Below, one piece after another: positions 1-46,740 of a stretch of 64,000 nt of DNA (position 1 is the first letter of the stretch; each line of letters begins with the position of its first letter). A model generated the notes under the pieces. The model saw only the letters and a program-made list of their open reading frames with translations. It had not been told where the DNA came from and did not search any database. The DNA comes from Escherichia virus TH38: the sequence record MT446410.1, one strand, 5' to 3'. A program made the translations under genes and the position numbers.

Positions 1-172
1 CCTAAGCCCCAAAATATTTAAAGTATATATTATATGGTATATTCATATGAATAGGGTGACACTGGCGCCATTATTGTGCAACCAAAAAAGACTACTCTGA
101 AAACGAGGAAAAGATTTTTTCCTGCCTGAATTAGATACGGAGTTAGCGATATGAAAACCGAACAACGTCATG
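1..172. repeat. Direct repeat copy A (171 bp, one indel near the end versus copy B); plasmid divergent-promoter region
   Basis: 1-166 identical to 3174-3339, then tcatg shared after a 1-nt indel; offset 3173 bp. Confidence 0.9.
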
Positions 173-321
173 ATCTTGTTAAAGATATTGAGGTTTTTGG
201 CGTATCCTTGTCTCTGTTGATTTCCAGAGCGAATGAGAAGTCTGTTACAATGCCATCTGGTCTAAGTCGGGAGCAGAGAAGAGCATGGGCAGCGGAGCAG
301 GCGCGCAAAATCCACAATTGA
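151..321 (+). CDS. Small ORF (56 aa) overlapping the start of the next ORF; possible antitoxin-like partner
   Basis: ATG at 151 with GGAG 8 nt upstream; 37-nt overlap with the 285-713 ORF in another frame; not in ORF track (<60 aa). Confidence 0.25.
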   Translation: MKTEQRHDLVKDIEVFGVSLSLLISRANEKSVTMPSGLSREQRRAWAAEQARKIHN

Positions 322-713
322 ATATTGTCTCATTCTCTGAGACCTTCAACCTTTATTACACATCCAGATATTCTGCAAAAACACTCGATAAAATCGATGA
401 TTTCATTGAGCATTTTGAAAAATACAATCTCTTTGGCGATCCTTTAAAAGGATATCCAGCTTGGACTGGCAAAGTATCGCCATCGTGGAAAGTGCCTGAT
501 CATTACGAAAACAAAGAAGCTATTGAGAAGTATGCTAGAGCTAACAAATTATGGCATGCTCATTTAGGCGATCCGGTTTTTAAAGATACGTTTCATGGGA
601 AATACAAGGTTTCTGACTGGGTTATTCATTTCCAGCGGCTGACACCGAACCATATAAAGCTTTTAGAGCTTGGATACCATGACCCAATGAAGCTACCTCA
701 AAACTTTGAATGA
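285..713 (+). CDS. Hypothetical protein, possibly a toxin-like (YafO-type?) plasmid protein; true start may be internal
   Basis: 142-aa ORF with a WHAHLGDP motif; operon-like overlap with the upstream small ORF; family assignment is a weak recollection. Confidence 0.3.
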   Translation: MGSGAGAQNPQLNIVSFSETFNLYYTSRYSAKTLDKIDDFIEHFEKYNLFGDPLKGYPAWTGKVSPSWKVPDHYENKEAIEKYARANKLWHAHLGDPVFKDTFHGKYKVSDWVIHFQRLTPNHIKLLELGYHDPMKLPQNFE

Positions 714-737
714 TCGAGCGGCAGGCTAAATGAAATC

Positions 738-766
738 TTGAGATTCATTCAGTCTCGTCGTAATCT
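738..766 (+). promoter_or_regulatory. RNA II (replication primer) promoter, -35 TTGAGA / 17 bp / -10 TAATCT
   Basis: Same architecture and near-identical sequence to the pMB1/ColE1 RNA II promoter. Confidence 0.6.
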
Positions 767-774
767 CACTATTG

Positions 775-1330
775 TAAAAACGAAAAAACCACCCTGGCAG
801 GTGGTTTTTCGAAGGTTAGTTAATCCTGGCAGATTCTCTAACCGTGGTAACAGTCTTGTGCGAGACATGTCACCAAATACTGTCCTTTCAGTGTAGCCTC
901 AGTTAGGCCGCCACTTCAAGAACTCTCGTTACATCTCTCGCACATCCTGCTTACCAGTGGCCGTTGCCAGTGGCGTTAAGTCGTGTCTTACCGGGTTGGA
1001 CTCAAGACGATAGTTACCGGATAAGGCGCAGCGGTCGGGCTGAACGGGGGGTTCGTGCACACAGCCCAGCTTGGAGCGAACGACCTACACCGAACCGAGA
1101 TACCAACAGCGTGAGCTATGAGAAAGCGCCACGCTTCCCGAAGGGAGAAAGGCGGACAGGTATCCGGTAAGCGGCAGGGTCGGAACAGGAGAGCGCACGA
1201 GGGAGCTTCCAGGGGGAAACGCCTGGTATCTTTATAGTCCTGTCGGGTTTCGCCACCTCTGACTTGAGCGTCGATTTTTGTGATGCTCGTCAGGGGGGCG
1301 GAGCCTATGGAAAAACGCCTCCCGCGCGCC
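775..1330 (+). ncRNA. RNA II pre-primer of ColE1-type origin; RNA-DNA switch expected near 1320-1330
   Basis: Long near-identical stretch to the pMB1/ColE1 ori (e.g. ccagtggcg...taagtcgtgtcttaccgggttggactcaagacgatagttaccggataaggcgcagcggtcgggctgaacggggggttcgtgcacacagcccagcttggagcgaacgacctacaccgaac). Confidence 0.8.
779..886 (-). ncRNA. RNA I antisense copy-number control RNA (approximate ends)
   Basis: Antisense to the RNA II 5' end; hairpin aaaaaaccaccctggcaggtggttttt corresponds to the RNA I terminator; loop sequences differ from pMB1. Confidence 0.6.
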
Positions 1331-1547
1331 CTTCTTCTGGGTCTTTGTCTTTTGCTCACATGTTCTTTCCGGTTTTATCCCCCGATTCTGTGGATAACCG
1401 TATTACCGCCTTTGAGTGAGCTGACACCGCTCGCCGCAGTCGAACGACCGAGCGTAGCGAGTCAGTGAGCGAGGAAGCGGAAGAGCGCCTTATGTGACAT
1501 TTTCTCCTTACGCTCCTCTATGCCGTTCTGCATCCTGTCCGGATGCG

Positions 1548-1742
1548 TTATATCCCGGTAAGATTTTCCGCTTCAAAGCGTGTCTGTATGCTGTTCTGGA
1601 GTTCTTCTGCGAGTTCGTGCAGTTTCTCACACATGGCGGCCTGTTCGTCGGCATTGAGTGCGTCCAGTTTTTCGAGCAGCGTCAGGCTCTGACTTTTTAT
1701 GAATCCCGCCATGTTGAGTACGGCTTGCTGCTGCTTATTCAT
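1548..1742 (-). CDS. rop: Rop/Rom RNA I-RNA II modulator protein
   Basis: 64 aa, MNKQQQAVLNMAGFIKSQSLTLLEKLDALNADEQ... closely matches ColE1 Rop; convergent with RNA II as in pBR322. Confidence 0.9.
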   Translation of the reverse strand: MNKQQQAVLNMAGFIKSQSLTLLEKLDALNADEQAAMCEKLHELAEELQNSIQTRFEAENLTGI

Positions 1743-2001
1743 CTTTTCGTTTTCTCCGTTCTGTCTGTCATCTGCGTTGTGTGATTATATCGCGTACCAC
1801 TTTTCGACTGTTTTGCTGCCGCTATTCTGCCGCTTGGCTTTTTGACGGGCATTTCTGTCAGACAACACTGTCACTGCCAAAAAACTGCCGTGCCTTTGTC
1901 GGTAATTCGAGCTTGCTGACAGGACAGGATGTGCAATTGTTATACCGCGCATACATGCACGCTATTACAATTGCCCTGGTCAGGGCTTTGCCCCGACACC
2001 C

Positions 2002-2349
2002 ATGTCAGATACGGAGCCATGTTTTATGACAAAACGAAGTGGAAGTAATACGCGCAGGCGGGCTATCAGTCGCCCTGTTCGTCTGACGGCAGAAGAAGAC
2101 CAGGAAATCAGAAAAAGGGCTGCTGAATGCGGCAAGACCGTTTCCGGTTTTTTACGGGCGGCAGCTCTCGGTAAGAAAGTTAACTCACTGACTGATGATC
2201 GGGTACTGAAAGAAGTTATGAGACTGGGGGCGTTACAGAAAAAACTCTTTATCGACGGCAAGCGTGTCGGGGACAGGGAGTATGCGGAGGTGCTGATCGC
2301 TATTACGGAGTATCACCGTGCCCTGTTATCCAGGCTTATGGCAGATTAG
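2002..2349 (+). CDS. MobC-like ribbon-helix-helix mobilization accessory protein (no relaxase gene seen)
   Basis: 115 aa; RLTAEEDQEIRKRAAECGKTVSGFLRAAALG resembles the MobC family motif. Confidence 0.45.
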   Translation: MSDTEPCFMTKRSGSNTRRRAISRPVRLTAEEDQEIRKRAAECGKTVSGFLRAAALGKKVNSLTDDRVLKEVMRLGALQKKLFIDGKRVGDREYAEVLIAITEYHRALLSRLMAD

Positions 2350-2569
2350 CTTCCCGGAGAGAAAACTGTCGAAAACTGACGGTATGAACACCGTAAGCTC
2401 CCAAAGTGATCACCATTCGCTTTCATGCATAGCTATGCAGCGAGCTGAAAACGATCCTGACGCATCCTTCCTGTTTTTCCGGGGTAAAACATCTCTTTTT
2501 GCGGTGTCTGCGTCAGAATCGCGTTCAGCGCGTTTCAGTGGTGCGTACAATTAAGGGATTATGGTAAAT
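2350..2569. promoter_or_regulatory. cer-like multimer resolution site; XerC/XerD core at 2540-2569
   Basis: Exact ColE1 cer core GGTGCGTACAA-TTAAGGGA-TTATGGTAAAT at 2540-2569; accessory region assumed upstream. Confidence 0.8.
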
Positions 2570-2737
2570 ATATGAGCTATGCGATAACTTTAACTGTGAA
2601 GCGATGAACCCATTACAGGCAAAGCCAATTACTCCTGACAGTGGTTTAGCCAGAAGCAGGGCTACCAAGACCAATGCAATAAGTAATATATCGTTTTGCT
2701 ATCGTGCATCGCTCGCGCTCAGTTCCATTGTGCTTTT

Positions 2738-3166
2738 TTAAGCTGTCGTTTTTCTTACGGTATATACCGGTTTTTTATGGCGTGGTTTCTTAACTTGTTC
2801 AGCTACTGATGGACCCATTGTATCTAGGTAGTCAACTAGCTTTGTTAGATCATAAATATTGCGACCACCATATCGGCGATCACTCTTCGATGTTGGTTTC
2901 TTGTCCAAGAGATTAGCTTTTTCAAGATCATTGATAGCTCTCTGAACAGTCCGTACAGAAACCCCCATACGTATGGCTAGACTTTCCATTGACGGATGCG
3001 GCCACTCTTGCAAACTCCACCAGTGAACGATCAGGTTAAGTAGTGTGTTAAAGGCCACTGAAGTTAGCTTTTTCTCGTTTTGTATAAAAAACAATACGGT
3101 AGGCACTGCTGTCCAGCCAAGAGACAAACCGCCAGCTTTCCATTTATTCTTAACGGAGTAAGTCAT
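2738..3166 (-). CDS. Winged-helix/HTH DNA-binding protein (plasmid-borne, function unknown)
   Basis: 142 aa; LAIRMGVSVRTVQRAINDLEKANLL HTH; start 8 bp from the repeat. Confidence 0.45.
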   Translation of the reverse strand: MTYSVKNKWKAGGLSLGWTAVPTVLFFIQNEKKLTSVAFNTLLNLIVHWWSLQEWPHPSMESLAIRMGVSVRTVQRAINDLEKANLLDKKPTSKSDRRYGGRNIYDLTKLVDYLDTMGPSVAEQVKKPRHKKPVYTVRKTTA

Positions 3167-3173
3167 TGATTTT

Positions 3174-3344
3174 CCTAAGCCCCAAAATATTTAAAGTATA
3201 TATTATATGGTATATTCATATGAATAGGGTGACACTGGCGCCATTATTGTGCAACCAAAAAAGACTACTCTGAAAACGAGGAAAAGATTTTTTCCTGCCT
3301 GAATTAGATACGGAGTTAGCGATATGAAAACCGAACAACTCATG
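3174..3344. repeat. Direct repeat copy B; plasmid/phage junction at about 3340-3345
   Basis: Identity with 1-172 ends at 3344, after which sequence is phage-like. Confidence 0.9.
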
Positions 3345-3557
3345 GTTGAGGTTCTGAAGACGCTCATTTCTGTCTTCAACTTGCATAATAAGATCATTAA
3401 GTGTTACTTTAACTTTCTCATTATACATCTCATCCACTCGGACTAGAGATTTATACATTCTCTCCCAGCTTGCTGCTTTGTTTCTGAGAACAATAAACCC
3501 TATAACGCTGATAGTTAAACAGCTTACAAAAAGGAATTTATATACCTCTAAAGTCAT
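3216..3557 (-). CDS. Junction-spanning chimeric ORF: about 71 N-terminal residues phage-encoded (TM helix + coiled coil), C-terminus read from the plasmid repeat
   Basis: ORF crosses the repeat boundary at about 3343; N-terminus FLFVSCLTISVIGFIVL is hydrophobic. Confidence 0.35.
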   Translation of the reverse strand: MTLEVYKFLFVSCLTISVIGFIVLRNKAASWERMYKSLVRVDEMYNEKVKVTLNDLIMQVEDRNERLQNLNHELFGFHIANSVSNSGRKKSFPRFQSSLFWLHNNGASVTLFI

Positions 3558-3756
3558 ATTATTTACCCTTTATCAGAGATTAAAAGTAATATTATTTAAG
3601 TAAGTTATATTTAGTAAACTTATTTTCTAAGAAATTTTCAAAGGGTCTATATACAGAGCATTACCCATAGTCCCAGAATACTACCATCTTTTTCAATAAA
3701 TTTACTAAGTGGTTGGTTTATAAAGGAATTTAGTTTGTCAAATCTGGCACTAGTGA

Positions 3757-4146
3757 TTATTCCCTAGAGCTATTATCGAACACTAAATCACCACAATACA
3801 TAGGATTGGCATACCATTTTGGCACCCCTTCGCTCTTACTCTGAAAGTAAGTCCCACTGTACAGCGGAACATAATTCTTCTTAAGGGCACGTTTAGCTAG
3901 CCGCTCGCTTTCTCCAATGGCTTTCTTAGTCATCGGATTTTTATCACGAATCAGCTTTACATAACGTTTATAAGGTTTCTCCTGTTTTAATAGTACCGGA
4001 ATCCACTCAAACTGGTTCTTTTGTCTTATCACCTGTTCAGCGGTCAGTTTTCGTTGGGCCATTCTATTTATTACGGTATCCGCAACTAGGGCTTTACATG
4101 CGGTTGGCTGATTCCCTGCCTCATAATAAATAGTCAATGTCAACAT
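3757..4146 (-). CDS. Cell wall hydrolase, SleB/CwlJ-like (Hydrolase_2 domain)
   Basis: YYEAGNQP...ALVADTVINR...QKNQFEW motif pattern. Confidence 0.5.
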   Translation of the reverse strand: MLTLTIYYEAGNQPTACKALVADTVINRMAQRKLTAEQVIRQKNQFEWIPVLLKQEKPYKRYVKLIRDKNPMTKKAIGESERLAKRALKKNYVPLYSGTYFQSKSEGVPKWYANPMYCGDLVFDNSSRE

Positions 4147-4193
4147 TAGCTGTGCCGTTGTTATCAGAACTTGATACCTCCTGTTTTACGGGC

Positions 4194-4221
4194 ATAAAAA
4201 AGCCCCAGCCGTAGCCGGGGC
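4194..4221 (-). terminator. Rho-independent terminator (minus strand)
   Basis: Hairpin gccccggctacggctggggc followed by a T-run on the minus strand. Confidence 0.55.
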
Positions 4222-4284
4222 AAACCTGAAAGCAACGCATGACCGTTGCTATAAATACACTCGCAAATGCACTTACAGCAACGC

Positions 4285-4306
4285 AAAAAGCCGCTCAAAG
4301 GCGGCT
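4285..4306 (-). terminator. Rho-independent terminator (minus strand)
   Basis: Hairpin agccgcctttgagcggct plus T5 on the minus strand. Confidence 0.55.
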
Positions 4307-4362
4307 ATGCGGAAGCTTCAAATGGGGAGAGGGCATGACACTACAGAAAGAGCGTCATAGTA

Positions 4363-4545
4363 CTAAAAGAGAGGGGTGCTATTCCATAATGATTTCCTAT
4401 CCCTTTCTCTACTTCTAGATTCTATCTCCTTCTTTAGCAAATCGTTTTCTTCTTGCAAGGATGCTACCAGATGAACCAGAACATCAACTACTGCATCACC
4501 TTGCCGCATCTCTCTGACTTTATTTAGAATCTCTGAATAAATCAT
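4363..4545 (-). CDS. Hypothetical protein (60 aa)
   Basis: ORF; ATGA start/stop overlap with the upstream gene. Confidence 0.4.
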   Translation of the reverse strand: MIYSEILNKVREMRQGDAVVDVLVHLVASLQEENDLLKKEIESRSRERDRKSLWNSTPLF

Positions 4546-4985
4546 TTTACCCTCGCCTCTTTGATGGGGTCGATGTATTTCTCAACGCCCCACTTGTGTT
4601 TACTATCTGCGTAGAAAACATCAGGTGCACATTGGCTTGTTTTAGGGAAGGCTTGCGGGTCTTTCGTGCTCCCCTTAAACTTCTGTTTACCTCGAGTGCG
4701 ACCATTACAGAAGATTTCTAACTTCTTCTCTTCTTCTGTTTTAGCGCCCCCGCTCTGTAACAAAGAACGTTTATGATCGGCTAATAATAACGCATCAGCA
4801 CGATGGACACGATGGCCTACGCGCTTAGGTATACTAGAAGGAACATGAGATTCAGCCTCAGCCTTTGCAGCACGACGTTTTAAACTGCGCTTGCTGACGT
4901 GATTGGTTGCCTTCGGCTTCTCTTTCTCCAGTTCAGAGATAGAAAAACAACGCCCGCCCTTCATGCTGATTTTAGATTTAGCCAC
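4542..4985 (-). CDS. Hypothetical basic protein (147 aa)
   Basis: ORF with a Lys/Arg-rich sequence. Confidence 0.45.
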   Translation of the reverse strand: MAKSKISMKGGRCFSISELEKEKPKATNHVSKRSLKRRAAKAEAESHVPSSIPKRVGHRVHRADALLLADHKRSLLQSGGAKTEEEKKLEIFCNGRTRGKQKFKGSTKDPQAFPKTSQCAPDVFYADSKHKWGVEKYIDPIKEARVK

Positions 4986-5054
4986 AATCTTATTCCTTCC
5001 AGTGATAAGTTATATCGGGCAAGCCCATCAAGTCGATAGGCTTGAACAAATAAC

Positions 5055-5264
5055 TTAATCAAGTAAACTAAACGATTTCCAACTGCGTAGCAGGATTGTA
5101 CCGTCATCCATAGCTACGCATAACTTTAACAGTTTCTTGTTAGCACTACTCACCGTTGTAATTCGTCCAGTTGTACATTTACCTTTGTTGCTATAAAGAT
5201 ATATAACACGACGGCCTAACAGACGAGAAGGTGCTTTCTTAAATTCTGAAATGTTAGTGATCAT
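5055..5264 (-). CDS. Hypothetical protein (69 aa)
   Basis: ORF; ATGA overlap with the upstream gene. Confidence 0.4.
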   Translation of the reverse strand: MITNISEFKKAPSRLLGRRVIYLYSNKGKCTTGRITTVSSANKKLLKLCVAMDDGTILLRSWKSFSLLD

Positions 5265-5485
5265 AATGCTTGATACCTTTGAATGTGTTCAATACGGGTG
5301 GATTGAGCAAATGACGCTTTAACAGCCATTTTCCTAACTTCTTCTTTACGCTGGTTAGTGTGTACAGTATCCCAATGATTGTTATCACGTTGGCGCTGTA
5401 ATATCTTACTGCATTTGCGATGGTTTCCCGTGCTGCGATGTTTCTCACAAATAGGACACTTGCCAAAATTATTACTGAATATCAT
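5261..5485 (-). CDS. Hypothetical small protein with CPIC...H...H putative zinc-binding motif
   Basis: ORF; coupled ATGA overlaps on both sides; preferred over the overlapping 5254-5466 frame. Confidence 0.4.
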   Translation of the reverse strand: MIFSNNFGKCPICEKHRSTGNHRKCSKILQRQRDNNHWDTVHTNQRKEEVRKMAVKASFAQSTRIEHIQRYQAL

Positions 5486-5709
5486 TTTCTCAATCCCAAC
5501 TTTCTTAAGATACGGCCTAACGTTGTTTCTTGCGTGATAATATAGCTGATCGCTTCACGTTCCAACGTTTCAATCTTCATTGGTGACGGATACCATTCAC
5601 CGGTAATAACACATTTACATTCAACGCCATACTTTTTAGATAGGCGGTAATGTTGACCATTGACAAGATTCCGATAAATCGTGGTATGTGTAATTAACAT
5701 GATCATCAC
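5482..5709 (-). CDS. Hypothetical protein (75 aa)
   Basis: ORF. Confidence 0.4.
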   Translation of the reverse strand: MMIMLITHTTIYRNLVNGQHYRLSKKYGVECKCVITGEWYPSPMKIETLEREAISYIITQETTLGRILRKLGLRK

Positions 5710-5753
5710 CTTTGATTAGATTCTTTGATTAATGCACTGAATCAATGCACTGA

Positions 5754-5787
5754 TAAAAGAAAAGGCGCTACCCGTTAAGATAGCGCC
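5754..5787 (-). terminator. Rho-independent terminator (minus strand)
   Basis: Hairpin ggcgctatcttaacgggtagcgcc plus T-rich tail on the minus strand. Confidence 0.55.
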
Positions 5788-5811
5788 TTATGTTTATTTA
5801 AATTGTCTTAC

Positions 5812-6720
5812 TTATGCCGCCTGACGTGCCGCCATAATTTCAGCCGCTTTACGCAATACCTCTTCCTCTTCTGCTTTCGCCGCTTGTTCGGTACGGGTAG
5901 CAACCGTTGAAGAGATACGACCGCGCAGACTCTCTAACTTCTCCTGCATAGCTGCAACAGTCTTTTCCATTTCATCAGCGTATGAATCGAGTGATTCTAA
6001 TTCCTTGCTTGATGCGTTCATCAGGTAGTTATCAGAGATCGCTACCGTTGAGGCCGTGACTTTCTTGATGAGTGAATCAAAAGATTTCTTAACCTTTCCT
6101 ACTTCTTCACTCAGGGCGATAGTGTTATCACTAGTTGCGCCGTTGCGCTCATCAGCCAGTAATTTGGCTTCAATACGGATTGCATTCAAGCGTTCAACCA
6201 AAGCGTAAATATCTTGGTTAAAGTCTTCCTTGTTTTTCGCCGGGATTTGCAGGTGTGCCGCCACATTGTCATTGCAACCCTTGTAAAAGTTAGGGTTATC
6301 GACTTCAATTTCACGGCCTAAAGCAAAGTTTTCGAAAGCGTTTGACCAGCGAGCGCGGTTTTGTTCCATTTTGGTTTTAATTTGCGCTTCTTTCGCGTCT
6401 TCTTTAGCTTTCGCCTCACCTTCCAGATTAATCCACTTTTTACGACCATTTGCCGCATCAGTGTTAAACTTGATAGGAGTTAAGAAAGTAATTGCAGTGG
6501 CAATCACATCCATATCACGAAAACGTTCAGTTAACAAGAAGTCAACCGCCGTCTGCAATACGTCCAGCTTTTTACCGTTACTGCGGAAGTGCTGTAAGTG
6601 CCCTAACAGGAAGTTAGAAACATCTTGTTTGATCGCCGCGTTATTGCTACGAATGTTGTTAGCCAGTGCATTAAAACCAGATTCGTTAACCAGAGTAAAA
6701 ACTTTAGCCATGATATTCAC
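5812..6720 (-). CDS. Hypothetical early protein (302 aa)
   Basis: Long ORF, first gene downstream of the promoter-rich AT region. Confidence 0.55.
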   Translation of the reverse strand: MNIMAKVFTLVNESGFNALANNIRSNNAAIKQDVSNFLLGHLQHFRSNGKKLDVLQTAVDFLLTERFRDMDVIATAITFLTPIKFNTDAANGRKKWINLEGEAKAKEDAKEAQIKTKMEQNRARWSNAFENFALGREIEVDNPNFYKGCNDNVAAHLQIPAKNKEDFNQDIYALVERLNAIRIEAKLLADERNGATSDNTIALSEEVGKVKKSFDSLIKKVTASTVAISDNYLMNASSKELESLDSYADEMEKTVAAMQEKLESLRGRISSTVATRTEQAAKAEEEEVLRKAAEIMAARQAA

Positions 6721-6780
6721 CTTTCAATTGTAAGGGCGCTATTGCCCCGCTCTCTATGAGCTTGTTTAAGTCACTATTAA

Positions 6781-6820
6781 CTTATCAATAACCACTCATT
6801 GTTAAGTAATTATTGATAAG
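6781..6820. promoter_or_regulatory. Perfect 11-bp inverted repeat CTTATCAATAA / TTATTGATAAG (18-bp spacer), with a third CTTATCA nearby; candidate operator
   Basis: Seen directly, about 60-100 bp upstream of the 5812-6720 gene start. Confidence 0.4.
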
Positions 6821-7627
6821 CGGGGCGGTCTTATCAGGAGTTAAACTTGCCGCCCCCTTATCCGTGATGTTTCATCTGGTATCTTTAATTAGTCGCTATA
6901 AACGAAGCCGACCTGATAGCGATGATCAATCATCACAATAAGGCAGTGCGTCCGACTCTAATTAGTTACATTTATTGTAACCGTCGGCAATATCGTCTAC
7001 TTTGCTTTCGCTCTCGCCTATCCTTTTGTATCAACTCTCAATCACTAGCCATCGCCCACAACGGGATGCTATTGTGAAAGAGTCATTGACCGTCTAATGT
7101 TCTGACGTTTTATATCTTTCGGCAAGTTTACTACATAAACTGACTATGTACGCCATCGATAGTGGCCTCAAATCATTCACATCGTAAACGTTCACACTAA
7201 ACCTTATTGTTAAATAGCAATTTGCCACTTTTTAACCACTCCCCGCCGCCCTCAATTGAGCGTTAATTCTTCGGGCTTGCCTACCCTGATTAACTTCTTT
7301 CACTGTAGCGCCTTGTTAGCGATGACCGCCGCTACCCTTAACCGTGGGCGATTAGCTTAAGTCTTTGCGTACACTCAATGAATCCGTTTATCAGTGGTGA
7401 CGTTTCCAGTAAGGGATTGTAAGATTGTTTACTCTGATAACTTAGAGAATCTTACACCGTTTTATCTGGTATGCTATCCGATGGTTATTATCATCTAGCA
7501 TATTCAACCGATATATGAGAATGTTTAAATTGTTAAAGAGCGGTAAATCTGTCAGTGTGCTTTCTCACACTACGCAACTGTTAGCCGTTGTTACGCTTTC
7601 CTTAAGCGATGATTTGCTTAAGTGTGC

Positions 7628-7656
7628 TCATTATGAATCATGTTGTTTTCGCTGTC
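7628..7656 (-). promoter_or_regulatory. Sigma70-consensus early promoter (TTGACA-17 bp-CATAAT), leftward
   Basis: Minus strand ttgacagcgaaaacaacatgattcataat; A/T-rich UP-like sequence upstream. Confidence 0.6.
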
Positions 7657-8118
7657 AACCACTTTTTTAATCTTTTTCGTCGTTCCCTTTATTGGGAGGA
7701 TATATCAATCAGCTATATTTGATTGAAGATTAAGCGGCAAGGCTTAAACTTATGATTCATATTTTTAAAGAGCGGTTACTACACTTTCAGCTTAACACAT
7801 CGTGTTAACTTGTCAAACTCTTTTTTATCATCTTCTTTTATTCCGTTCCCTTATCTCGCTTGAATCTATGCGAAAGGGCAAGATGATAAGTCTGATTTGT
7901 CTTTTAGGAATCTAGTGCGCTTTCAAGCATCGACCATTTGAAAGTATCGAACAAATGAGGCTTATTTTGTTGCTCATCGTCCGCCTGTTCACGTATGAAT
8001 CAGGAATCAATTCTAGTGGTCAACTAAGCGCCTTATAGTAATGACGTTCCCGCCACCTGTAAGACAAATCATATTTTTAAAGAGCGGGATTTTTTAAGTC
8101 ATCGCTGACTGAGTGCTT

Positions 8119-8147
8119 ATTATGAATCAGGCTGTTTTCGGTGTCAA
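8119..8147 (-). promoter_or_regulatory. Sigma70-consensus early promoter (TTGACA-17 bp-CATAAT), leftward
   Basis: Minus strand ttgacaccgaaaacagcctgattcataat; paralogous to the 7628-7656 promoter. Confidence 0.6.
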
Positions 8148-8557
8148 TACTCTTTTTAAGAATATTTTCACTTTCTAGCCTGATTTTTAAAGAGCGTAGC
8201 ACCTTCATTGTGCGTCTTACTGTCGGTATTCCTACCGCTCCCCGTTGAAGCCTTTTACCGTGATGCTAATCACCTATCGAGGAGTTTTTACTACTTGTTG
8301 TTACTTACTGCTTACTACGGGATTCATATTACTATAAAGGAAAATCATGTCAATACCCTTTTTTCAAATTATTTTTCATCTCACTGTTTTATAAAGGAAT
8401 TTATTTTATTGTCGGTAGGACACCGGAAGAAATCAGGAGGTAAAAGAGCGGGGGCGCGTGATACATCATAGAAAACGGCTTGTAAAGCAATAATAAGCGG
8501 CCTGAAACGCACTGTAGCGAGCTAAAAGGGAGTAAGCCATACAATCACCCTAGAAAT

Positions 8558-8580
8558 GAAAAAAGCCTCATAGCGAGGCT
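8558..8580 (-). terminator. Rho-independent terminator (minus strand)
   Basis: Hairpin agcctcgctatgaggct plus T6 on the minus strand. Confidence 0.6.
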
Positions 8581-8657
8581 TATAGGAAGGTTTTAAAGTA
8601 TCAGATAAATTATGACCATAGGCATGACCACGGCACAATAAAGCAGAAATAGTAACC

Positions 8658-9035
8658 CTATGGATTTACACATTGACCGTTACCGGATTCAATTTCATTC
8701 ATGGACTCATCAAAGAGCGTTAACGATGAGCGCATCAAGTGATCAATCATGACTTGTTTACCGGTTGTTTCATTTACCAGTTGAACAGTTTTATCATATG
8801 ATTGCACATGATCGAAATCATTTACATGCAAAATAATAACTTTAGGTGACTTTTTACCGGTTTCATAGTTTTCTACAAGATAAGTACATTGCAAGCCGTC
8901 AACCGTAGCAGGGGAGAATGTTGCAGCCTTAACGCTACCCATAGCCGATAGGAGCACACCCAGCAGGAGAACGACAAGGAAGAAGCCCACGAATACTTTT
9001 ACTACAAATTTGATAATACCCATGATAATAATCAC
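8658..9035 (-). CDS. Hypothetical membrane-anchored early protein
   Basis: ORF with an N-terminal hydrophobic segment. Confidence 0.45.
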   Translation of the reverse strand: MIIIMGIIKFVVKVFVGFFLVVLLLGVLLSAMGSVKAATFSPATVDGLQCTYLVENYETGKKSPKVIILHVNDFDHVQSYDKTVQLVNETTGKQVMIDHLMRSSLTLFDESMNEIESGNGQCVNP

Positions 9036-9127
9036 CTATAGTTAGAGAATATAAGAATAAAGCATATCAGCGACGAATAACGCCACTGTAACAACGAACA
9101 AGCAACGCCAAAAATAATCATGAATCA

Positions 9128-9382
9128 CTAGTTGCTATCCTCGCCAAAAAATGCTACGCTAACCTGTTCCACTTCTTCCAGCGACAGAAGAATCCCGCGT
9201 TGGGCTAAATACTTCCCAATAGTGAGATAATCCTGTACTAAATAGACCGCAGGAAAGCTAATAGTTTTTATTTCACCCTTAGTTAGAAAGGACAAATAAG
9301 TGTAGTCGATTGACTCATCAAAGGAGAGCGTAACGCCACCGTAATTGTGCGTGTCAATCAGTGCGATTGTTTCATTACCCAT
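9128..9382 (-). CDS. Hypothetical protein (start adjusted to internal ATG coupled to the upstream stop)
   Basis: GGAGGTGG RBS and ATG overlapping the stop of the 9375-9638 ORF. Confidence 0.4.
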   Translation of the reverse strand: MGNETIALIDTHNYGGVTLSFDESIDYTYLSFLTKGEIKTISFPAVYLVQDYLTIGKYLAQRGILLSLEEVEQVSVAFFGEDSN

Positions 9383-9638
9383 TAGTGCCACCTCCAACAA
9401 GGCCATGATTGAGCAGGTTAGCCAGTGACAAGCCACCGTCAAAATATATAGAACGAAAATCATCACGGTTAATTTCAACGCCGATAGCAGATAGCCAATT
9501 TTTAGCCTGTTTAAAATCCATAACGCAGAAAGTAACAACAGGCAACGTTAACTGACCATGACGCAGATTAAACGTGATAGCGGTATCGCCAACAAAAACA
9601 GAATAGCCATTAGATAATCTAACTTCTTTGATAGCCAT
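9375..9638 (-). CDS. Hypothetical protein (87 aa)
   Basis: ORF. Confidence 0.4.
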   Translation of the reverse strand: MAIKEVRLSNGYSVFVGDTAITFNLRHGQLTLPVVTFCVMDFKQAKNWLSAIGVEINRDDFRSIYFDGGLSLANLLNHGLVGGGTNG

Positions 9639-9663
9639 TTTTACACTCCTGAAAATAGGTTAT

Positions 9664-10536
9664 TTACTTACTAGCCTTAATACAGTTGGCTAAATTAACG
9701 TGAACGGTATAAACAGCGTTATCAGCGTTATTGTAAACAGTTGTAGCAATCATCGACTCATTGATCGGGCCATAGCTCACTAGGTTGGTTACAGCTTTAA
9801 CGTCTTCGTAACGTTGTACAGTGCCAAATGTCACCATATCCGCATCGTTATCAGTACGCTTGAGAACTAGATCACTGTTAGGCTGATTATCTAACGTTTT
9901 AGATTGAAAGAGAACGCCATCATTTGTTACGTTGCTAAATTTCATCTTTAGCACGATATTATTGCTGTCACTATCCGCACCGTTGCAAATCATCCAACCC
10001 TTATTGATGGAACTAGAGAAGACACTAGCCGCATCAGTTGCAGGAGCAGGACTAGCGATAGCCTTATCAGAAAGAGATGTGACCAGTGCACTAACACCGA
10101 TAGCTGCAACCAGTGCATAACTTGCCAGATTAACAGACTTCATAATCTTACTTGCAACAGTAGGCTTGATTGGCTGTTTCTTGTTTTTCTTGTTCCATGC
10201 TTCAACCATGACAGACAAGCGGGATAATTCAGCTTTCACATCACGGCATGACTCAGGCCAATCTTTCTGATTCCAGCTATCCAAATTCGCTTGAATGTAA
10301 CAATTGATAGCGTCCTGCATATCGGTAAAACCGTTCTCTTTGAACGTGCTTTCATCTTCACACTGTAAAGCGTTCGCAGTAGAATTAATGATCAAGCAAG
10401 CCAGCATTACAGAGTTTTTGAATCCTTTACGTGCGCTTTCGTTTTCCATCCACGCATCAGGACTACCAACAGTTAAGCCTAAAGAGGAAAGACTTTCGTT
10501 TGCTTTGTTCAAGTGGTTAATTGCTACTTTAGACAT
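9664..10536 (-). CDS. Hypothetical early protein (290 aa) with a central hydrophobic segment
   Basis: ORF with AAGGAA RBS; first gene leftward of the divergent region. Confidence 0.5.
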   Translation of the reverse strand: MSKVAINHLNKANESLSSLGLTVGSPDAWMENESARKGFKNSVMLACLIINSTANALQCEDESTFKENGFTDMQDAINCYIQANLDSWNQKDWPESCRDVKAELSRLSVMVEAWNKKNKKQPIKPTVASKIMKSVNLASYALVAAIGVSALVTSLSDKAIASPAPATDAASVFSSSINKGWMICNGADSDSNNIVLKMKFSNVTNDGVLFQSKTLDNQPNSDLVLKRTDNDADMVTFGTVQRYEDVKAVTNLVSYGPINESMIATTVYNNADNAVYTVHVNLANCIKASK

Positions 10537-10580
10537 TTGATATTCCTTATGGTTGATGAAAACTACAAATTACAATCGCA

Positions 10581-10608
10581 ACTATATAATAAAGGAAAAA
10601 CCTGTCAA
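10581..10608 (-). promoter_or_regulatory. Sigma70-like promoter (TTGACA-16 bp-TATAGT), leftward
   Basis: Minus strand ttgacaggtttttcctttattatatagt about 40 bp upstream of the 10536 start. Confidence 0.5.
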
Positions 10609-10719
10609 CCATTTATTTTCTAACTTTCTTATAACTCACTGAAAACTAAAGGAATTTAATTTACTAAACTTTCCATACTCAGAGAATCAGCTTACTAGCT
10701 ATTGTTACTTTATAACACT

Positions 10720-11190
10720 AATCCTACGGGTGTTACGCTGGTGCTACGGGTAGCAGACCAACAGACCAGGGCAAACGGGGAACACACAACCGCAGAACAG
10801 ACCACGGGGAAACATAGCAAGATAGTGCGGTAATAATATACCACTTAAATAATTGTATAACTCAAACATCAAAGACGTTCGCTACGCTCACAAAGGCACG
10901 CTGAAAAAGAAAAGAATAAAAGAAACACAATCATCCACTTAATTAATACATATATCATTATTGCACTCATAATCATTACTATTGAAACTATTATCAACGT
11001 AACTATGGGGGAATGGGGTAGTAACTAGGGGTATTATTAGACCTGTTATTATCACGCCTTAACAGACCGTTATCAGAGTATAGCCTTTCTCTCACTCTCT
11101 AAAGGGGAACTAAATAAACGGGTAGCTAATGTATTGGGTAGTATACACGGGGAAATAATTACGGGGAGTAGGCACGGGGAAAAGTGGAAC
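10720..11190. repeat. Iteron-like short direct repeats (ACGGGGAA about 7 copies; CAGACCA 3 copies) in the divergent intergenic region
   Basis: Seen directly, e.g. aaacggggaacac, ccacggggaaacat, acacggggaaataattacggggagtaggcacggggaaaag. Confidence 0.5.
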
Positions 11191-11589
11191 GTTGAAAAGG
11201 AAGGTAAAGGCATTGCCAATAACCCTTTTTTAAATGAGGACTCCCCCCTTTTAGGAAACGCGCGGGAAGCGGCTAGCCCCATTCGGTCAAATTGAAATTT
11301 TAAACTGTTATATATAAGGTTGAAAGAGAACTTATGTGGAAAATTAAGTTAATCATTAAGCAATTTAAATGTGATCATGAGTACTATCGGATTCGTAAAG
11401 CTTACGGGGATGAAAGAGTTCACACCCTTTATAAGTCCACTTGGAGATGTAGTAAGTGTGGTAAGCTTAAACACAGCACATGGATGGATAGGTCTTAATG
11501 GAATGGATATTCTGGTTAGTAATAGTCTTCTGTTTATTCATCTGCTTCTCTATAGCAAGATGTATCAAGTATGATTAAGGAACATTAGT

Positions 11590-11725
11590 GACTGACTAAG
11601 CCTTAACATGACATGGCCTTTATGTGAGGGTGCCTTAACATGAAGTCCCCTTTACATCAGCGTACACGGGTTGCTAGTATGAGGATGCCTTTACGGGTTG
11701 GATATGACTAGCCCTTTATACTTTT
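11590..11725. repeat. Array of about 6 GCCTT(T/A)A-type repeats just upstream of the first rightward gene
   Basis: gccttaacatga occurs twice, plus gcctttatgtga, cccctttacatc, gcctttacgggt, gccctttatac. Confidence 0.45.
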
Positions 11726-11743
11726 ATTCAGAGGAGAAGAATT

Positions 11744-11998
11744 ATGAATTTAGTATTAGACTTTTTATCAGAGATGGTGCCTCGGTTCAGAACGGAGACA
11801 TACGCTTTCGTAATCAACAGTGACTCTGAAGATGGGATGGAAGCTACGTGCTTAGGTCGACTTGTTGACTTAGATGATGATGACGATTTCGATATTACAA
11901 TTGACGTGAGTAGCTTAGGTTGGCTCTTCTTCAGAGCATTCCGCACTTACAAAGTAGAAACATACAAAGATTATAGCAAGGGAGATACAAATGAATAA
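11744..11998 (+). CDS. Hypothetical acidic protein (84 aa)
   Basis: ORF with RBS. Confidence 0.45.
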   Translation: MNLVLDFLSEMVPRFRTETYAFVINSDSEDGMEATCLGRLVDLDDDDDFDITIDVSSLGWLFFRAFRTYKVETYKDYSKGDTNE

Positions 11999-12623
11999 TC
12001 CAATAATCGCAGTTAATATGGAAGGTGTTTATGGAGGTAGCTTCCCTTCTGGTTCTCCTTTCCACATTAAAGCAATGGACATAGTTGATTACAATTCACA
12101 GCTATGTCGTTCTGGTTGTAGCTTACAGCATTTAGAAACTATGGGAAATATTTCAGGACTAGCTGTACAAGATTTATATAGTGGAAGTATTCTTAAACCA
12201 AATATTACGGAGAACAAAAACATGTTAGATTTGATTCATACTACTCGCCCTGATTCTAAAACTAAAACACAACCATCTACTCTGGAAGTAATTGAATACG
12301 AATCTACTAAACATGATCACCTCCCTGACTATGCTCGTGCAATGATTGAGATGATTGAAGAAGCTGAATATGAAATGCTCCATGATTACATTACCTCCAA
12401 AGATGAATGGCATCGTGATGTTCGAATTGAAGAAGATGGTACAGAAACAATTACGTGGATTCACAAGAGTGAGTTAGTAGACGACGCACTGCGAGACTAC
12501 GAAAAATTTTTGGTCGACGGCTCTATTCTTTTAGAGGAAGAGAAGGGTGCAGACCTTCCGTGGGAAGGTGAGACGATTGCTCTTGGTAAGACGTTTAACC
12601 TGTCCATTGGTGATTGTAAGTAA
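11991..12623 (+). CDS. Hypothetical protein (210 aa)
   Basis: ORF with AGGGAG RBS. Confidence 0.5.
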   Translation: MNNPIIAVNMEGVYGGSFPSGSPFHIKAMDIVDYNSQLCRSGCSLQHLETMGNISGLAVQDLYSGSILKPNITENKNMLDLIHTTRPDSKTKTQPSTLEVIEYESTKHDHLPDYARAMIEMIEEAEYEMLHDYITSKDEWHRDVRIEEDGTETITWIHKSELVDDALRDYEKFLVDGSILLEEEKGADLPWEGETIALGKTFNLSIGDCK

Positions 12624-12628
12624 TATTT

Positions 12629-12650
12629 GCCTCCGTTGGGAGGCTTTTTG
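12629..12650 (+). terminator. Rho-independent terminator
   Basis: gcctccgttgggaggc followed by ttttt. Confidence 0.6.
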
Positions 12651-12679
12651 TGTTGTTGATAATGTAGAAGGAGTATAAA

Positions 12680-13153
12680 ATGTTTGGAGAAAACGGAGAA
12701 CTCACGCCTGCACAGGTAGCTGAGATTACAGGAAGATTACCCGGAGTAACGGAAGAACTTGAAGGACGTGGTATGAACCCAAGCAATGGGAAGTTTCAAA
12801 AGGGAAATAAATTCGGACGACCCAGAGGTAGTAGAGGTAAACTGACACAATTAATGTTGGACCGTGTTGCTGCAAGTCATTTGTCTCCTGATGAAGTGTT
12901 AATTCAAATTTACGAAGATCCTAATATTCCACCTGATCTTAGATTCAAGGCTGCATCAAAAGTTGCAGATCTGGTATATCCTAAGGCGGCCTCTGTTGAA
13001 GTTAAGATTGAGGAAGAGAATGTAATCAACGAAGAATCATTGAATGCACAAATCAAGGACTTCTTGACTGGAGCACTTGGTATCGACGTTATGCCTCCAG
13101 AAGAAGACAACTCTGAAGAAAATGAAACGAACAGTCAAGATGAGCAGGTTTAA
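12680..13153 (+). CDS. Putative terminase small subunit (by position; N-terminal HTH-like, acidic C-terminus)
   Basis: Immediately upstream of the large terminase; GAAGGAG RBS. Confidence 0.4.
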   Translation: MFGENGELTPAQVAEITGRLPGVTEELEGRGMNPSNGKFQKGNKFGRPRGSRGKLTQLMLDRVAASHLSPDEVLIQIYEDPNIPPDLRFKAASKVADLVYPKAASVEVKIEEENVINEESLNAQIKDFLTGALGIDVMPPEEDNSEENETNSQDEQV

Positions 13154-13289
13154 GGAATCCTCTCGTTAAACTAACAAACCTTAGAAGTGATAGAGGAGAT
13201 TTCATTTATTCAAGAGTTAATTAAAGGAAAGAAGGGGAGGTTCTTTGACGAAGGGACTTTCCCTTTTCTATTTTTAAACTGGAGGAAGT

Positions 13290-14831
13290 ATGTCATTAGA
13301 TAAACAAATTTATGAAGCTCTAACTGGTAACAACCTTAGTGTAGAGGAAAAGAAAGCACTATTGAATATGTTGAAAGAGCGTGACCAATGGAGGAAGTAT
13401 AATAGGATTTTGTCTTTCAAGGCGTATGACTTCCAAAAGAAATTTTATGCAGCAGGATTGAAGCATCGCTTTAGATTCTTGTGTGCAGCGAACCGTGTTG
13501 GTAAATCTTATAGTGAGGCATACGAGTTTGCTTGTCATGTCACAGGTCGCTACCCAACTTGGTGGACAGGATATAAATTTAAAAGACCTATCTTAGCATG
13601 GGCAGTTGGTATTACAGGGGATTCCACAAGGAAAGTATTGCAAAAGGAATTGTTTGGTACACCTATCGGAAAGGATACAAATTTATTGGGGACAGGTGTC
13701 ATTCCTCGTGATGCTATCGTCATTGACACGATAGAACGAGATGGTAACAAACTTCAAATCGTACAAATCAAACATCAAAACGAAAGAGGAGAGTTTGACG
13801 GTTTAAGTACATTAGAATTCCGTTCAACCCAACAGGGTGAACACACATTGATGGGTGCAACAGTTGACTACATTTGGTTAGACGAAGAAGATCCATACGA
13901 GTCTATGGCTATATTCGCACAGTGCGTCACACGTACACTCACAACTAAAGGTCTAGTTACAATTACAGCTACACCAGAGAACGGTTTAACTGAACTGGTA
14001 GATAAATTTATGAAAGGTGAAGGGGATGAGAACACAGGTTCTCTATATTTCCAGAATGCTTCTTGGTGGGATGCTCATGCAGACCTAGGTGGACATATCA
14101 CTGACCAAGATATAAAAGATATGACTGAAGGTATTCCAGCGTGGCAGTTAGAGATGCGTTCGAAAGGTATGCCATTGTTAGGAAGTGGTTTGATTTATGA
14201 TGTATCGGATGACACAATTAAATGTGAACCATTCGAAATTCCTGATACGTGGAAACGTGTCTGTGCAATTGATATTGGTATTGATCACCCAACTGCTGCT
14301 GTTTGGACAGCTTACGACGCAAACACGGATACTATCTATGTTTACGACTCATATAAAGAAGGTGGCTTTACTCCAGTGTATCATGCCCCAGCTATTAATG
14401 GTCGTGGTCAGTGGATTCCTGTCATCCTACCGCACGATGCGGACAATATTGAGAAAGGTAGTGGCTCATCTGTTGCTCAATTCTATAAGAATGCAGGAGT
14501 TAACGTGCAGAGTGAGACCTTCTACAACAAAATTGGAATGGATGGTAAAAAGAACTTCTTTGTAGAACCGGGAATCACAGATATCCGAGAAAGAATGATG
14601 AGTGGACGCTTTAAAATCTTTAACACAGCCGCTAACGCTAAGCTATTCGAAGAGAAAGCTAGATATCACCGTAAGGTTGGTAAGATTATTAAAGAACATG
14701 ATGACTTAATGGATGCAATGCGCTATTCAGCGTGCTCTGTTACACATCGTGGTCGCTCTAAACATGACGTTAGCTACGGAAGTGCTTCTCTGTATGAGGC
14801 AAACGTAAGCAGATGGAATCAGAGTTACTAA
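13290..14831 (+). CDS. Terminase large subunit
   Basis: 513 aa; Walker A-like AANRVGKS, Walker B-like DYIWLDEED, C-terminal nuclease-like region. Confidence 0.75.
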   Translation: MSLDKQIYEALTGNNLSVEEKKALLNMLKERDQWRKYNRILSFKAYDFQKKFYAAGLKHRFRFLCAANRVGKSYSEAYEFACHVTGRYPTWWTGYKFKRPILAWAVGITGDSTRKVLQKELFGTPIGKDTNLLGTGVIPRDAIVIDTIERDGNKLQIVQIKHQNERGEFDGLSTLEFRSTQQGEHTLMGATVDYIWLDEEDPYESMAIFAQCVTRTLTTKGLVTITATPENGLTELVDKFMKGEGDENTGSLYFQNASWWDAHADLGGHITDQDIKDMTEGIPAWQLEMRSKGMPLLGSGLIYDVSDDTIKCEPFEIPDTWKRVCAIDIGIDHPTAAVWTAYDANTDTIYVYDSYKEGGFTPVYHAPAINGRGQWIPVILPHDADNIEKGSGSSVAQFYKNAGVNVQSETFYNKIGMDGKKNFFVEPGITDIRERMMSGRFKIFNTAANAKLFEEKARYHRKVGKIIKEHDDLMDAMRYSACSVTHRGRSKHDVSYGSASLYEANVSRWNQSY

Positions 14832-42527: not shown

Positions 42528-42755
42528 CTAGATTAAATCATAATACTGAATAATGTCAGAGAGTTTGAATTCTCGAATCTCATCTTTCTCTACATCTATT
42601 GCTGTCATAATCCAACAAGGTTTGCCACCGTTATGAAAACGGGAGCTAGCAACGGAGGTTCGGAGTGGAATAACGGACCGGTCAGAAACCTCGCCTCTCC
42701 AATTGCGATAGCGAAAGCGAAGCACTTGTTGCGTAGATTTTTGATCATCACTCAT
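42528..42755 (-). CDS. Hypothetical protein (start adjusted to just after the HNH stop)
   Basis: ORF. Confidence 0.35.
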   Translation of the reverse strand: MSDDQKSTQQVLRFRYRNWRGEVSDRSVIPLRTSVASSRFHNGGKPCWIMTAIDVEKDEIREFKLSDIIQYYDLI

Positions 42756-43149: not shown

Positions 43150-43328
43150 AATCAGCTTCTTCCCAAACTCGTTTGTTTACACGATGGCTCACCTTACCCT
43201 CACGAGGAATACGACCAGTTCTCTGATCAAACAGTTGATGTTTAATCTTTTGGTCTTTACGAGATTCACGGTTGGAGTAGTTTTCATCATATGAACGATA
43301 ATCAAATTTACCCATTATAATATCCTTA

Positions 43329-44735: not shown

Positions 44736-44745
<10 letters not shown>
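44134..44745 (-). CDS. Deoxynucleoside monophosphate kinase-like P-loop kinase
   Basis: ILNGPPGCGKDT. Confidence 0.55.
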
Positions 44746-46231
<1,486 letters not shown>

Positions 46232-46232
<1 letters not shown>

Positions 46233-46727: not shown

Positions 46728-46740
46728 ATTGACTCCAACG

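Follow-up and report, generated by a model that had tools for sequence, protein, structure and literature searches.

The 64,000-nucleotide stretch of Escherichia virus TH38 analysed here (record MT446410.1; referred to as the window) opens with the small E. coli plasmid pMUT1, written as slightly more than one unit and abutting the genome of an ordinary lytic Kuravirus. Host plasmid DNA that was co-purified with the phage has very probably been joined to the phage contig as a chimera at the level of the record, and a real hybrid molecule, either rare or fixed in the phage stock, is rather unlikely. The first-pass annotation had offered two alternatives, a circular plasmid contig wrongly assembled with the phage and a phage-plasmid cointegrate. 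The former is supported by a plasmid block of more than one unit, a redundancy like that of sibling records, a blunt junction and an assembly in which the site is intact; the cointegrate fails as the main form of the genome, given a closed circle free of the plasmid.

Positions 1-3173 of the plus strand comprise one complete and self-contained ColE1-type plasmid, cryptic and of 3173 bp. The sequence of pMUT1 from E. coli Nissle 1917 (NZ_MW240712.1), when rotated, has 0 mismatches to this unit over 3173 nt, which upholds its earlier description as a self-consistent small plasmid. PLSDB holds 26 records with at least 99% identity to the unit and 19 among the 25 matches listed are at 100.0%; the top matches are mostly free 3173-bp records at 100%, and identical plasmids on record come from E. 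coli of pig, urine and river water. The RNAI origin, Rop, the cer core and the unit length are all present and establish both the ColE1-type class and the identity with pMUT1. The origin had been held to be other than that of pUC/pMB1 vectors and this is correct, vector-type origins in phage records matching at about 91% only and pMUT1 at 100%. The first-pass annotation had recognised neither the plasmid as the well-known pMUT1 nor the phage as an ordinary Kuravirus.

The features of the plasmid, the junction and the adjoining phage DNA are collected in Table 1. The match that supports the proposed RNA I-type origin covers the Rfam model in full (1-102) and exceeds the gathering score of 47. 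A terminator-like hairpin is situated at 810-783 within the RNAI region, and RNA II together with the origin would extend rightwards on the plus strand to about 1330. The rop gene has been found as claimed, and the gene described as MobC-like encodes a NikA-like ribbon-helix-helix protein whose 107-aa version (about 2026-2349) carries the name MobA in RefSeq. The 30-nt string, which we take to be the ColE1 cer core, is likewise present exactly. Promoter-like sites in the divergent promoter region claimed for the plasmid do not exceed in number those of shuffled sequence. The 142-aa ORF matches neither Pfam nor PADLOC, and the second copy of the 56-aa ORF is cut by the junction after codon 5.

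Table 1. Features of the plasmid block, the junction and the adjoining phage DNA in the window
Feature	Position	Strand	Basis
ORF, 56 aa, function unassigned	151-321	+	ORF list; RefSeq WP_001531327.1; matches phrog_18801
ORF, 142 aa, function unassigned	285-713	+	ORF list; WP_000534558.1; phrog_5954
RNAI antisense copy-number control RNA, ColE1-type origin	780-881	-	Rfam RF00106, 80.3 bits
rop (Rom)	1548-1742	-	PF01815, E 2e-30, full profile
NikA-like ribbon-helix-helix mobilization accessory gene	2002-2349	+	PF21983, E 3.5e-18
cer-type XerC/XerD core, 30 nt, GGTGCGTACAATTAAGGGATTATGGTAAAT	2540-2569	+	exact string match, core only
HTH_36 / MarR-like DNA-binding protein gene (predicted)	2738-3166	-	PF13730, E 7.2e-9; WP_000222531.1
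Chimeric 113-aa ORF	3216-3557	-	73 phage residues + 40 residues of plasmid antisense read-through
Phage gene, 5' part (72 codons + 2 nt of 98)	3340-3557	-	phi32_116 homologue (phiEco32), phrog_12154
Collapsed direct terminal repeat (physical genome ends, phiEco32-type)	about 11082-11290		phiEco32 mapping

The unit is followed directly by the start of a second pass round the plasmid circle (3174-3339, plus strand), which ends at the junction and repeats positions 1-166 (plasmid p1-p166) exactly over 166 nt at a spacing of 3173 nt. The plasmid block thus runs from the window start over 3173 + 166 = 3339 nt, or 1.05 units, and therefore represents a circle with terminal redundancy and not a unit-length insertion. 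The repeat had been described as one of 171 bp. Its place directly after the unit and before the phage DNA stands, and its exact length is 166 nt; the five further bases then counted, tcatg, are shifted by one base against the plasmid (plasmid ...caacGtcatga, window ...caac/tcatgg, with the slash at the junction). The start of the window exactly at the repeat boundary also fits a real 3339-bp insert with phage DNA on either side, in a permuted circle that was opened at its left junction.

The switch between positions 3339 and 3340 falls inside a 98-codon phage gene, and the abrupt change noted in the first-pass annotation is real as far as the record is concerned. Three-way alignments with the plasmid copy and with uninterrupted phage reveal a blunt junction with 0 nt of in-register microhomology. 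The local-alignment score round the junction is equalled or exceeded in 29% of 5000 random pairs of plasmid and phage positions, and this chance-level similarity rules out homologous or microhomology-mediated joining as well as the collapse of a de Bruijn graph at a k-mer common to both sequences. A de Bruijn origin by loop plus link would need k = 166 or 167, and common assemblers leave overlaps of 77, 127 or 141 nt, as exemplified by the 3250-bp pMUT1 record CP035488; this reading was dropped because the probable assembler, Geneious, is overlap-based. The 113-aa ORF that spans the junction is a by-product of the join and has no entry in the public protein/contig index. Searches with a 39-mer across the junction gave no match in IMG/VR, in JGI metagenome contigs or in GTDB genomes.

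Homologous recombination through sequence common to the plasmid and the phage, an option raised in the earlier reading together with a search for the repeat in related phage genomes, has a nearly negligible probability. That search has been carried out, and none of the related phage records contains the 166-nt repeat or any other part of pMUT1; the matches are confined to pieces of vector-type origins in unrelated records. BLAST of the plasmid against the phage part of the window and the 9.6 kb of phage upstream of the site gave no similarity, so that the repeat is absent also from the rest of the TH38 phage, and 0 nt are shared in register at the junction itself. The option is thereby refuted. 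No other phage record carrying pMUT1 was found, and the contexts of a pMUT1 protein, inspected from the longest contigs downwards, comprise plasmids, transposons and chromosomes only.

The remaining part of the window, 3340-64000 on the plus strand, is a circularly permuted Kuravirus genome (phiEco32-like podovirus), of which about 17.1 kb more lie beyond the window end. The closest record is TH06 with 98.6% identity, other members of the genus being at 93-97%, and the collinearity extends over 60.7 kb and, with TH06, across the ends of the TH06 record. The phage is thus an ordinary lytic Kuravirus. A comparison with RefSeq complete E. coli genomes and PLSDB gave no match to the phage part, which is accordingly neither a prophage nor a plasmid on record there. 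The interrupted gene is small, has no assigned function and belongs to the early-gene region; translations compared with TH06, phiEco32 and YF01 reveal that its last 25 codons are missing. Position 1 of phiEco32 maps to window position 11082 and its position 77079 to 10812. The direct terminal repeat, of 193 bp in phiEco32 according to PMC9965538, is collapsed inside the window, which indicates that the phage part is the circle of an assembler and not a sequence from virion end to virion end. It also places the join about 7.7 kb away from any physical genome end.

An independent assembly of what we infer to be the same phage stock covers the junction site. The Logan contig SRR11772961_164 matches the window at 3340-14146, 42702-54254 and 54225-64000 with 100.000% identity, 0 mismatches and 0 gaps, these three stretches amounting to 32.1 kb with zero net indel in between. 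One 140-aa protein of the window is found, in the whole index, on this contig only, and the uniqueness, the sequence identity and the record sizes together point to SRR11772961 as the stock of TH38. The candidate reading of the contig as a different phage was rejected on direct comparison of a 453-aa protein, which is identical in both. The protein look-up returned no record for the 926-aa tail fibre, the gene of which lies outside the compared part of the contig, and our literature search on SRR11772961 returned no paper. The two ends of the contig share 30 nt, equal to k-1 at k=31, and close a 77,801-bp circle that does not contain the plasmid. Where the window has its junction, this circle continues uninterrupted and carries the complete 98-aa gene (Logan sequence L034, 10590-10886), and the path of the k=31 assembler through the site is unbranched.

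This closed circle argues against a clonal phage::plasmid cointegrate, in which a 3339-bp pMUT1 segment (unit plus 166-nt duplication) would reside in the phi32_116-like gene and the record would be a closed circle of 81.1 kb, cut open where the insert begins on its left. Such a molecule would account for a window that opens exactly at p1, since a permuted circle could well begin at its left junction, and its size is only about 2% above that of Paul (79,429 bp), the largest member of the genus among the matches listed. The interrupted gene is also plausibly dispensable, being small and early, and the record length of 81,552 bp (3,339 + 77,801 + 412) fits equally well under this and the artefact reading. 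The 77,801-bp circle, however, needs k-mers over the uninterrupted site, which would be absent from a clonal stock, and the site is found uninterrupted in what appears to be the same stock. A single crossover would give exactly one unit; 1.05 units need two independent homology-free breakpoints, and neither one linear unit nor a recombination signature was found (0 nt microhomology, no shared sequence). No pMUT1 ORF matches the PADLOC defence-system library, and hence no selection for capture is apparent. The packaging of Kuravirus concatemers between specific terminal repeats, as described in PMC9965538, also argues against headful pick-up of the plasmid. A clonal cointegrate is consequently highly improbable. 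Plasmid capture is excluded as the dominant form of the genome and is compatible with a sub-population of the stock.

The assembly chimera accounts for these observations in terms of the way the library was made. The TH38 library was prepared with Nextera XT, sequenced as 2x250 reads and assembled with the Geneious de novo assembler at about 52x coverage; the DNA preparation is described with SDS lysis and without a nuclease or DNase step. The phage would be a normal lytic Kuravirus with a plasmid-free circle of about 77.8 kb, and the presence of the plasmid in the record suggests that a high-copy plasmid of the ColE1 type, with the very sequence of pMUT1, was present in the propagation host. 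Plasmid DNA in the lysate would have been carried through the purification together with that of the phage, as the methods mention no nuclease step. The greedy overlap assembler may then have written the plasmid circle with its first 166 nt repeated at the end, and the phage circle in permuted form. The end of the plasmid contig would have become linked to the contig of the phage at an arbitrary point within a gene, with the link probably supplied by a single chimeric read or a few of them, and this attachment may also have opened the phage circle at the junction point.

Two of the three sibling records checked retain untrimmed terminal redundancy of this kind, namely TH06 (360 nt, exact) and TH43 (554 nt), and both, which are probably from the same study, have arbitrary start points too. 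The 166-nt redundancy of the plasmid has the same signature. A full contaminant circle with assembler-type redundancy is present in the record, and the independent assembly holds the components separately.

Part of the evidence can also be read as a join in vivo in a minority of molecules, between the end of a linear plasmid multimer and replicating phage DNA without homology, which we regard as unlikely. Linear plasmid multimers form when RecBCD is inactive. Rolling-circle multimers made while the phage inhibits RecBCD could have given a few hybrids in the library, which the greedy assembler then promoted, and at about 52x coverage a few reads could settle the end of a contig. The plasmid tract of more than one unit is what a multimer would give. 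A perfectly blunt chimera made in vitro is moreover not the one most expected, because the transposase-based Nextera library has no ligation step and PCR chimeras usually arise at short homologies. The habit of the assembler, however, explains the 166-nt redundancy equally well, and the closure of the same phage through the intact site leaves the hybrid as at most a minor species. A dedicated end-joining pathway is not known in E. coli, where illegitimate joins without homology are rare events. Only one plasmid-phage junction lies inside the 64-kb window, in which no second one was seen; the plasmid reaches the window start and the last 17.5 kb or so of the record are outside. That a lytic Kuravirus captured a complete replication-competent ColE1 plasmid, as a 3339-bp multimer piece inserted in an early gene without homology, is improbable. 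The assembly chimera remains the preferred explanation.

Both components were already known and the biological weight of the case is small. The public complete genome MT446410 appears to hold 3.3 kb of host plasmid, which inflates its size to 81.6 kb; it is the largest among the Kuravirus entries listed in the table of the comparative paper PMC9965538, where a plasmid is not mentioned. Through the join, the phage pangenome gains plasmid genes and a fusion ORF, and phages could be falsely called carriers of plasmid, mobilization or origin genes when therapeutic phages are screened for safety or phage-plasmids are searched for. If the minority join were true, it would be a concrete case in which a strictly lytic phage captured a plasmid without homology, and a true capture would mean a virion-borne plasmid deliverable to new hosts. 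Literature searches on Nissle with Kuravirus, pMUT1 with transduction and lytic phage with cointegrate returned nothing on the TH38 case.

The plasmid of the TH38 record has the same sequence and content as pMUT1 of Nissle 1917 (RNAI/RNA II origin, rop, the NikA-like gene, cer, HTH_36 and two small ORFs) and differs in being written as 1.05 units abutting phage DNA. Its host was probably the isolation strain PS50 rather than Nissle itself. Similar joins of pMUT1 have been identified in two other records: CP022687.1, named pNissle1, has about 1.33 units (p2077/2079-3173 + 1-3135) joined to pMUT2, and the chromosome record CP007799.1 has about 1.33 units joined to the chromosome and pMUT2. Both are inferred to be misassemblies from the later free 3173-bp circles. 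The partners in these are pMUT2 or the chromosome and the redundancy is about 1.06 kb, whereas in TH38 they are a phage and 166 nt.

The phage part is collinear with other Kuravirus members (phiEco32, SU10, TH06, YF01 and Paul) at 93-98.6% nucleotide identity with the same gene order, and shares with them the collapsed terminal-repeat region of about 190 bp and the same 98-aa gene at the site. It differs in that this gene is cut after 72 codons and 2 nt and that the plasmid sequence is found in the TH38 record only.

Lytic phages do capture plasmid sequences, as exemplified by the escape recombinants of phages facing the ToxIN plasmid and by plasmid-phage recombinants of T4 and T7. Such real captures are based on homology or are selected; they have a junction on either side, and the wild-type site gives way to the recombinant in the stock. 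They resemble the TH38 record in that a lytic phage and a small host plasmid are found on one molecule or sequence, but in TH38 there is no homology, a single junction is visible and an independent assembly has the site intact. In contrast to phage-plasmids of the P1/N15/SSU5 type, which are temperate and have plasmid replication and partition genes of their own as a conserved part of the genome, TH38 is a lytic Kuravirus, and its plasmid module is an unaltered free host plasmid that is absent from its relatives.

The switch from plasmid to phage DNA between positions 3339 and 3340 of the window is very probably an artefact of assembly. The record does show what was observed, except that the repeat measures 166 nt, and both components are already known, namely the plasmid pMUT1 of E. 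coli Nissle 1917 and a Kuravirus genome.

Positions 1-3173 constitute one complete small plasmid which, after rotation, shows 0 mismatches to pMUT1 (NZ_MW240712.1). Among the best 5000 hits in PLSDB, 26 share at least 99% identity with this unit and derive from Nissle and also from E. coli of pig, urine and river-water origin. These matches identify the plasmid as a well-known cryptic replicon of the ColE1 type, not a cloning vector. The RNAI origin, rop, mobilization gene and cer core named in the first-pass annotation have all been recovered by Rfam, profile and string matches, and its view that the origin is not that of a cloning vector holds as well, vector-type origins in other phage records reaching only ~91% while the match to pMUT1 is exact. 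A ColE1/pUC-type origin is found in Salmonella phage seszw (MZ375336.1, 31563-32227, ~91% to window 872-1513), and the small 'phage' records OR850910.1, OR848931.1 and OR845275.1 also hold such segments, which suggests vector or plasmid contamination of other deposited phage sequences. Two overlapping ORFs of pMUT1, of 56 and 142 residues, have no match in Pfam or PADLOC. They match phrog_18801 (E 8.5e-10) and phrog_5954 (E 1.9e-16), respectively, families with no assigned function, and relatives of both thus exist in phage or prophage genomes.

Features of the plasmid unit and of the phage part of the window
Feature	Position	Strand	Remarks
Uncharacterised pMUT1 ORF, 56 aa	151-321	+	overlaps 142-aa ORF
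Uncharacterised pMUT1 ORF, 142 aa	285-713	+	overlaps 56-aa ORF
RNAI	780-881	minus	Rfam RF00106, 80.3 bits
Rop	1548-1742	minus	
NikA-like mobilization protein	2002-2349		
cer core, 30 nt	2540-2569		exact match
HTH_36 protein	2738-3166	minus	
phi32_116 homologue, 98-codon gene, 5' part	3340-3557	minus	cut by junction; phiEco32 copy at 2928-3224 of segment L001
HNH homing-endonuclease gene, 156 aa	56764-57234	minus	PF13392

The plasmid block amounts to 1.05 units and begins at position 1 of the window, which shows a single plasmid-phage junction. The repeat reported to follow the unit is real and exact, window 1-166 recurring at 3174-3339, but its length is 166 nt and not 171 nt. The additional 'tcatg' is shifted by one base: the plasmid has ...caacGtcatga, and in the window ...caac is followed across the junction by tcatgg. 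Insertion of a circular plasmid into a phage genome by a single crossover would leave exactly one unit between two junctions, whereas the form seen here, a full circle with short, exact redundancy at its ends, is how assemblers render circular molecules.

The remainder of the window (3340-64000) is a genome of Kuravirus, the genus of phiEco32-like podoviruses, collinear throughout with its relatives. The sibling phage TH06 is the closest deposited record (98.6% identity), the others standing at 93-97%. The junction maps to ~68.8 kb on the 77.6-kb phiEco32 map and leaves 72 codons and 2 nt of the phi32_116 homologue, followed by 40 codons of read-through in plasmid antisense. The window also crosses the ends of the phiEco32 genome, which carry a direct terminal repeat (PMC9965538). 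This repeat (~190-bp) is collapsed at ~11,082-11,290, indicating that the phage part is a permuted circle made by the assembler and that the join lies away from a physical DNA end. The intact 98-aa phi32_116-like protein carries the label 'DNA helicase' in RefSeq and phrog_12154. It is far below helicase size, a Pfam search revealed no domain in it and the N-terminal ~25 residues are markedly hydrophobic, so that the label looks like a propagated annotation error. The HNH gene, flanked by thioredoxin and thyX (Thy1) genes and overlapping the start of the latter by 32 nt, is absent from TH06 (alignment gap 56794-57239) and an identical protein is encoded in many other Kuravirus contigs; it resembles the insertion of a mobile endonuclease. 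ARAGORN identified no tRNA gene in positions 1-64000, the sole tRNA-Arg of this phage group being upstream of the junction site, past the window end.

The nature of the join was analysed by setting the window against both the plasmid copy and uninterrupted phage sequence. The breakpoint has 0 nt of in-register microhomology on either side, and the local-alignment score within ±15 nt of it is equalled or exceeded by 29% of 5000 plasmid/phage position pairs drawn at random. BLAST of the plasmid detected no similarity to any other part of the window or to phage DNA covering 9.6 kb upstream of the junction site. Homologous recombination, which had been suggested in case the repeat occurred in related phages, is ruled out by these results and by the absence of any part of the 166-nt repeat from every related phage; the same homology-free junction also excludes collapse of a de Bruijn graph on a k-mer common to plasmid and phage. 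Transposase libraries involve no ligation step, PCR chimeras mostly arise where short homologies exist, and a chimera as perfectly blunt as this one is thus slightly unexpected. This leaves a small probability for rare real hybrid molecules, which may have formed in infected cells by joining of a linear plasmid multimer to replicating phage DNA. Linear plasmid multimers are known to form when RecBCD is inactive; we consider this origin unlikely.

A public contig from a separate pipeline, Logan SRR11772961_164 (77,831 bp), was reached by exact-protein look-ups and is the sole contig in the index to encode one of the window's proteins, of 140 aa. It matches window 3340-14146, 42702-54254 and 54225-64000 at 100.000% identity (32.1 kb, 0 mismatches, 0 gaps), and the coordinate relation window = 54255 − record is valid on either side of the intervening 28.5 kb, which implies no net indel there. 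The last 30 nt of the contig repeat its first 30 (k-1 for k=31), so that it represents a closed circle of 77,801 bp. At the junction site this circle continues uninterrupted, carrying the whole 98-aa gene and no plasmid; k-mers across the uninterrupted site are therefore present in that read set, and any rival branch at the site was too weak to break the contig. The window starts exactly at the first position of the pMUT1 unit, as would a cointegrate circle permuted to open at its left junction. The closed circle free of plasmid speaks strongly against a true clonal phage-plasmid cointegrate. Such a cointegrate would also need two independent homology-free breakpoints, offers no apparent selectable function (the pMUT1 ORFs have no match in PADLOC) and belongs to a genus that packages between specific terminal repeats (PMC9965538). 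It is considered highly improbable.

The record derives from a study of 38 'TH' coliphages from sewage, in which four of the five Kuravirus-sized phages have 77.3-78.0 kb and TH38 (MT446410, host PS50) has 81,552 bp (PMC7498436). This length equals 3,339 + 77,801 + 412 and fits the artefact and cointegrate readings alike. Sibling 'complete genome' records begin at arbitrary internal positions, and untrimmed terminal redundancy is seen in TH06 (MT446386.1; 360 nt, exact) and TH43 (MT446414.1; 554 nt, 1 mismatch), whose stated genome sizes are hence overestimated. The 166-nt plasmid redundancy and the leftover of ~412 nt match this habit of the pipeline. TH34 (MT446407.1) has no simple suffix = prefix redundancy at its ends and shows an odd offset self-match near them. 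PP350014.1 ('phage PH444', 114,913 bp, unannotated), inspected at 31230-52261, contains a Kuravirus-like genome, exceeds every member of the genus in length by ~37 kb and may likewise be chimeric or concatenated.

For the assembly artefact we propose that host plasmid DNA would have co-purified with the phage DNA and been assembled as a separate circle with 166 nt of redundancy. One or a few chimeric reads would then probably have linked the plasmid contig to that of the phage, and this attachment would have opened the phage circle at a mid-gene point. Carry-over of host DNA and the occurrence of chimeric reads are known to trouble phage sequencing (PMC13108922; MDA-amplified libraries). A comparative study of the group has taken the 81.6-kb genome at face value, with the plasmid unmentioned (PMC9965538), and the practical use of the finding is a curation flag on this record.

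pMUT1 has probably been mis-joined before. The Nissle chromosome record CP007799.1 and CP022687.1 ('pNissle1') have ~1.33 units of it joined to chromosomal DNA or to pMUT2. This second plasmid of Nissle carries genes for Kiwa (the anti-phage proteins KwaA/KwaB) and for a toxin-antitoxin pair, RelB/ParE; none of its sequence is present in the window. In CP007799.1 (5197053-5209481) and NZ_CP022687.1 (1-11499) pMUT1 positions 2077/2079-3173 are followed by 1-3135, and the chromosomal partner adjoins pepQ. The breakpoints are common to both records, which looks like one inherited misassembly. In later assemblies, unlike these two records, pMUT1 is a free circle of 3173 bp.
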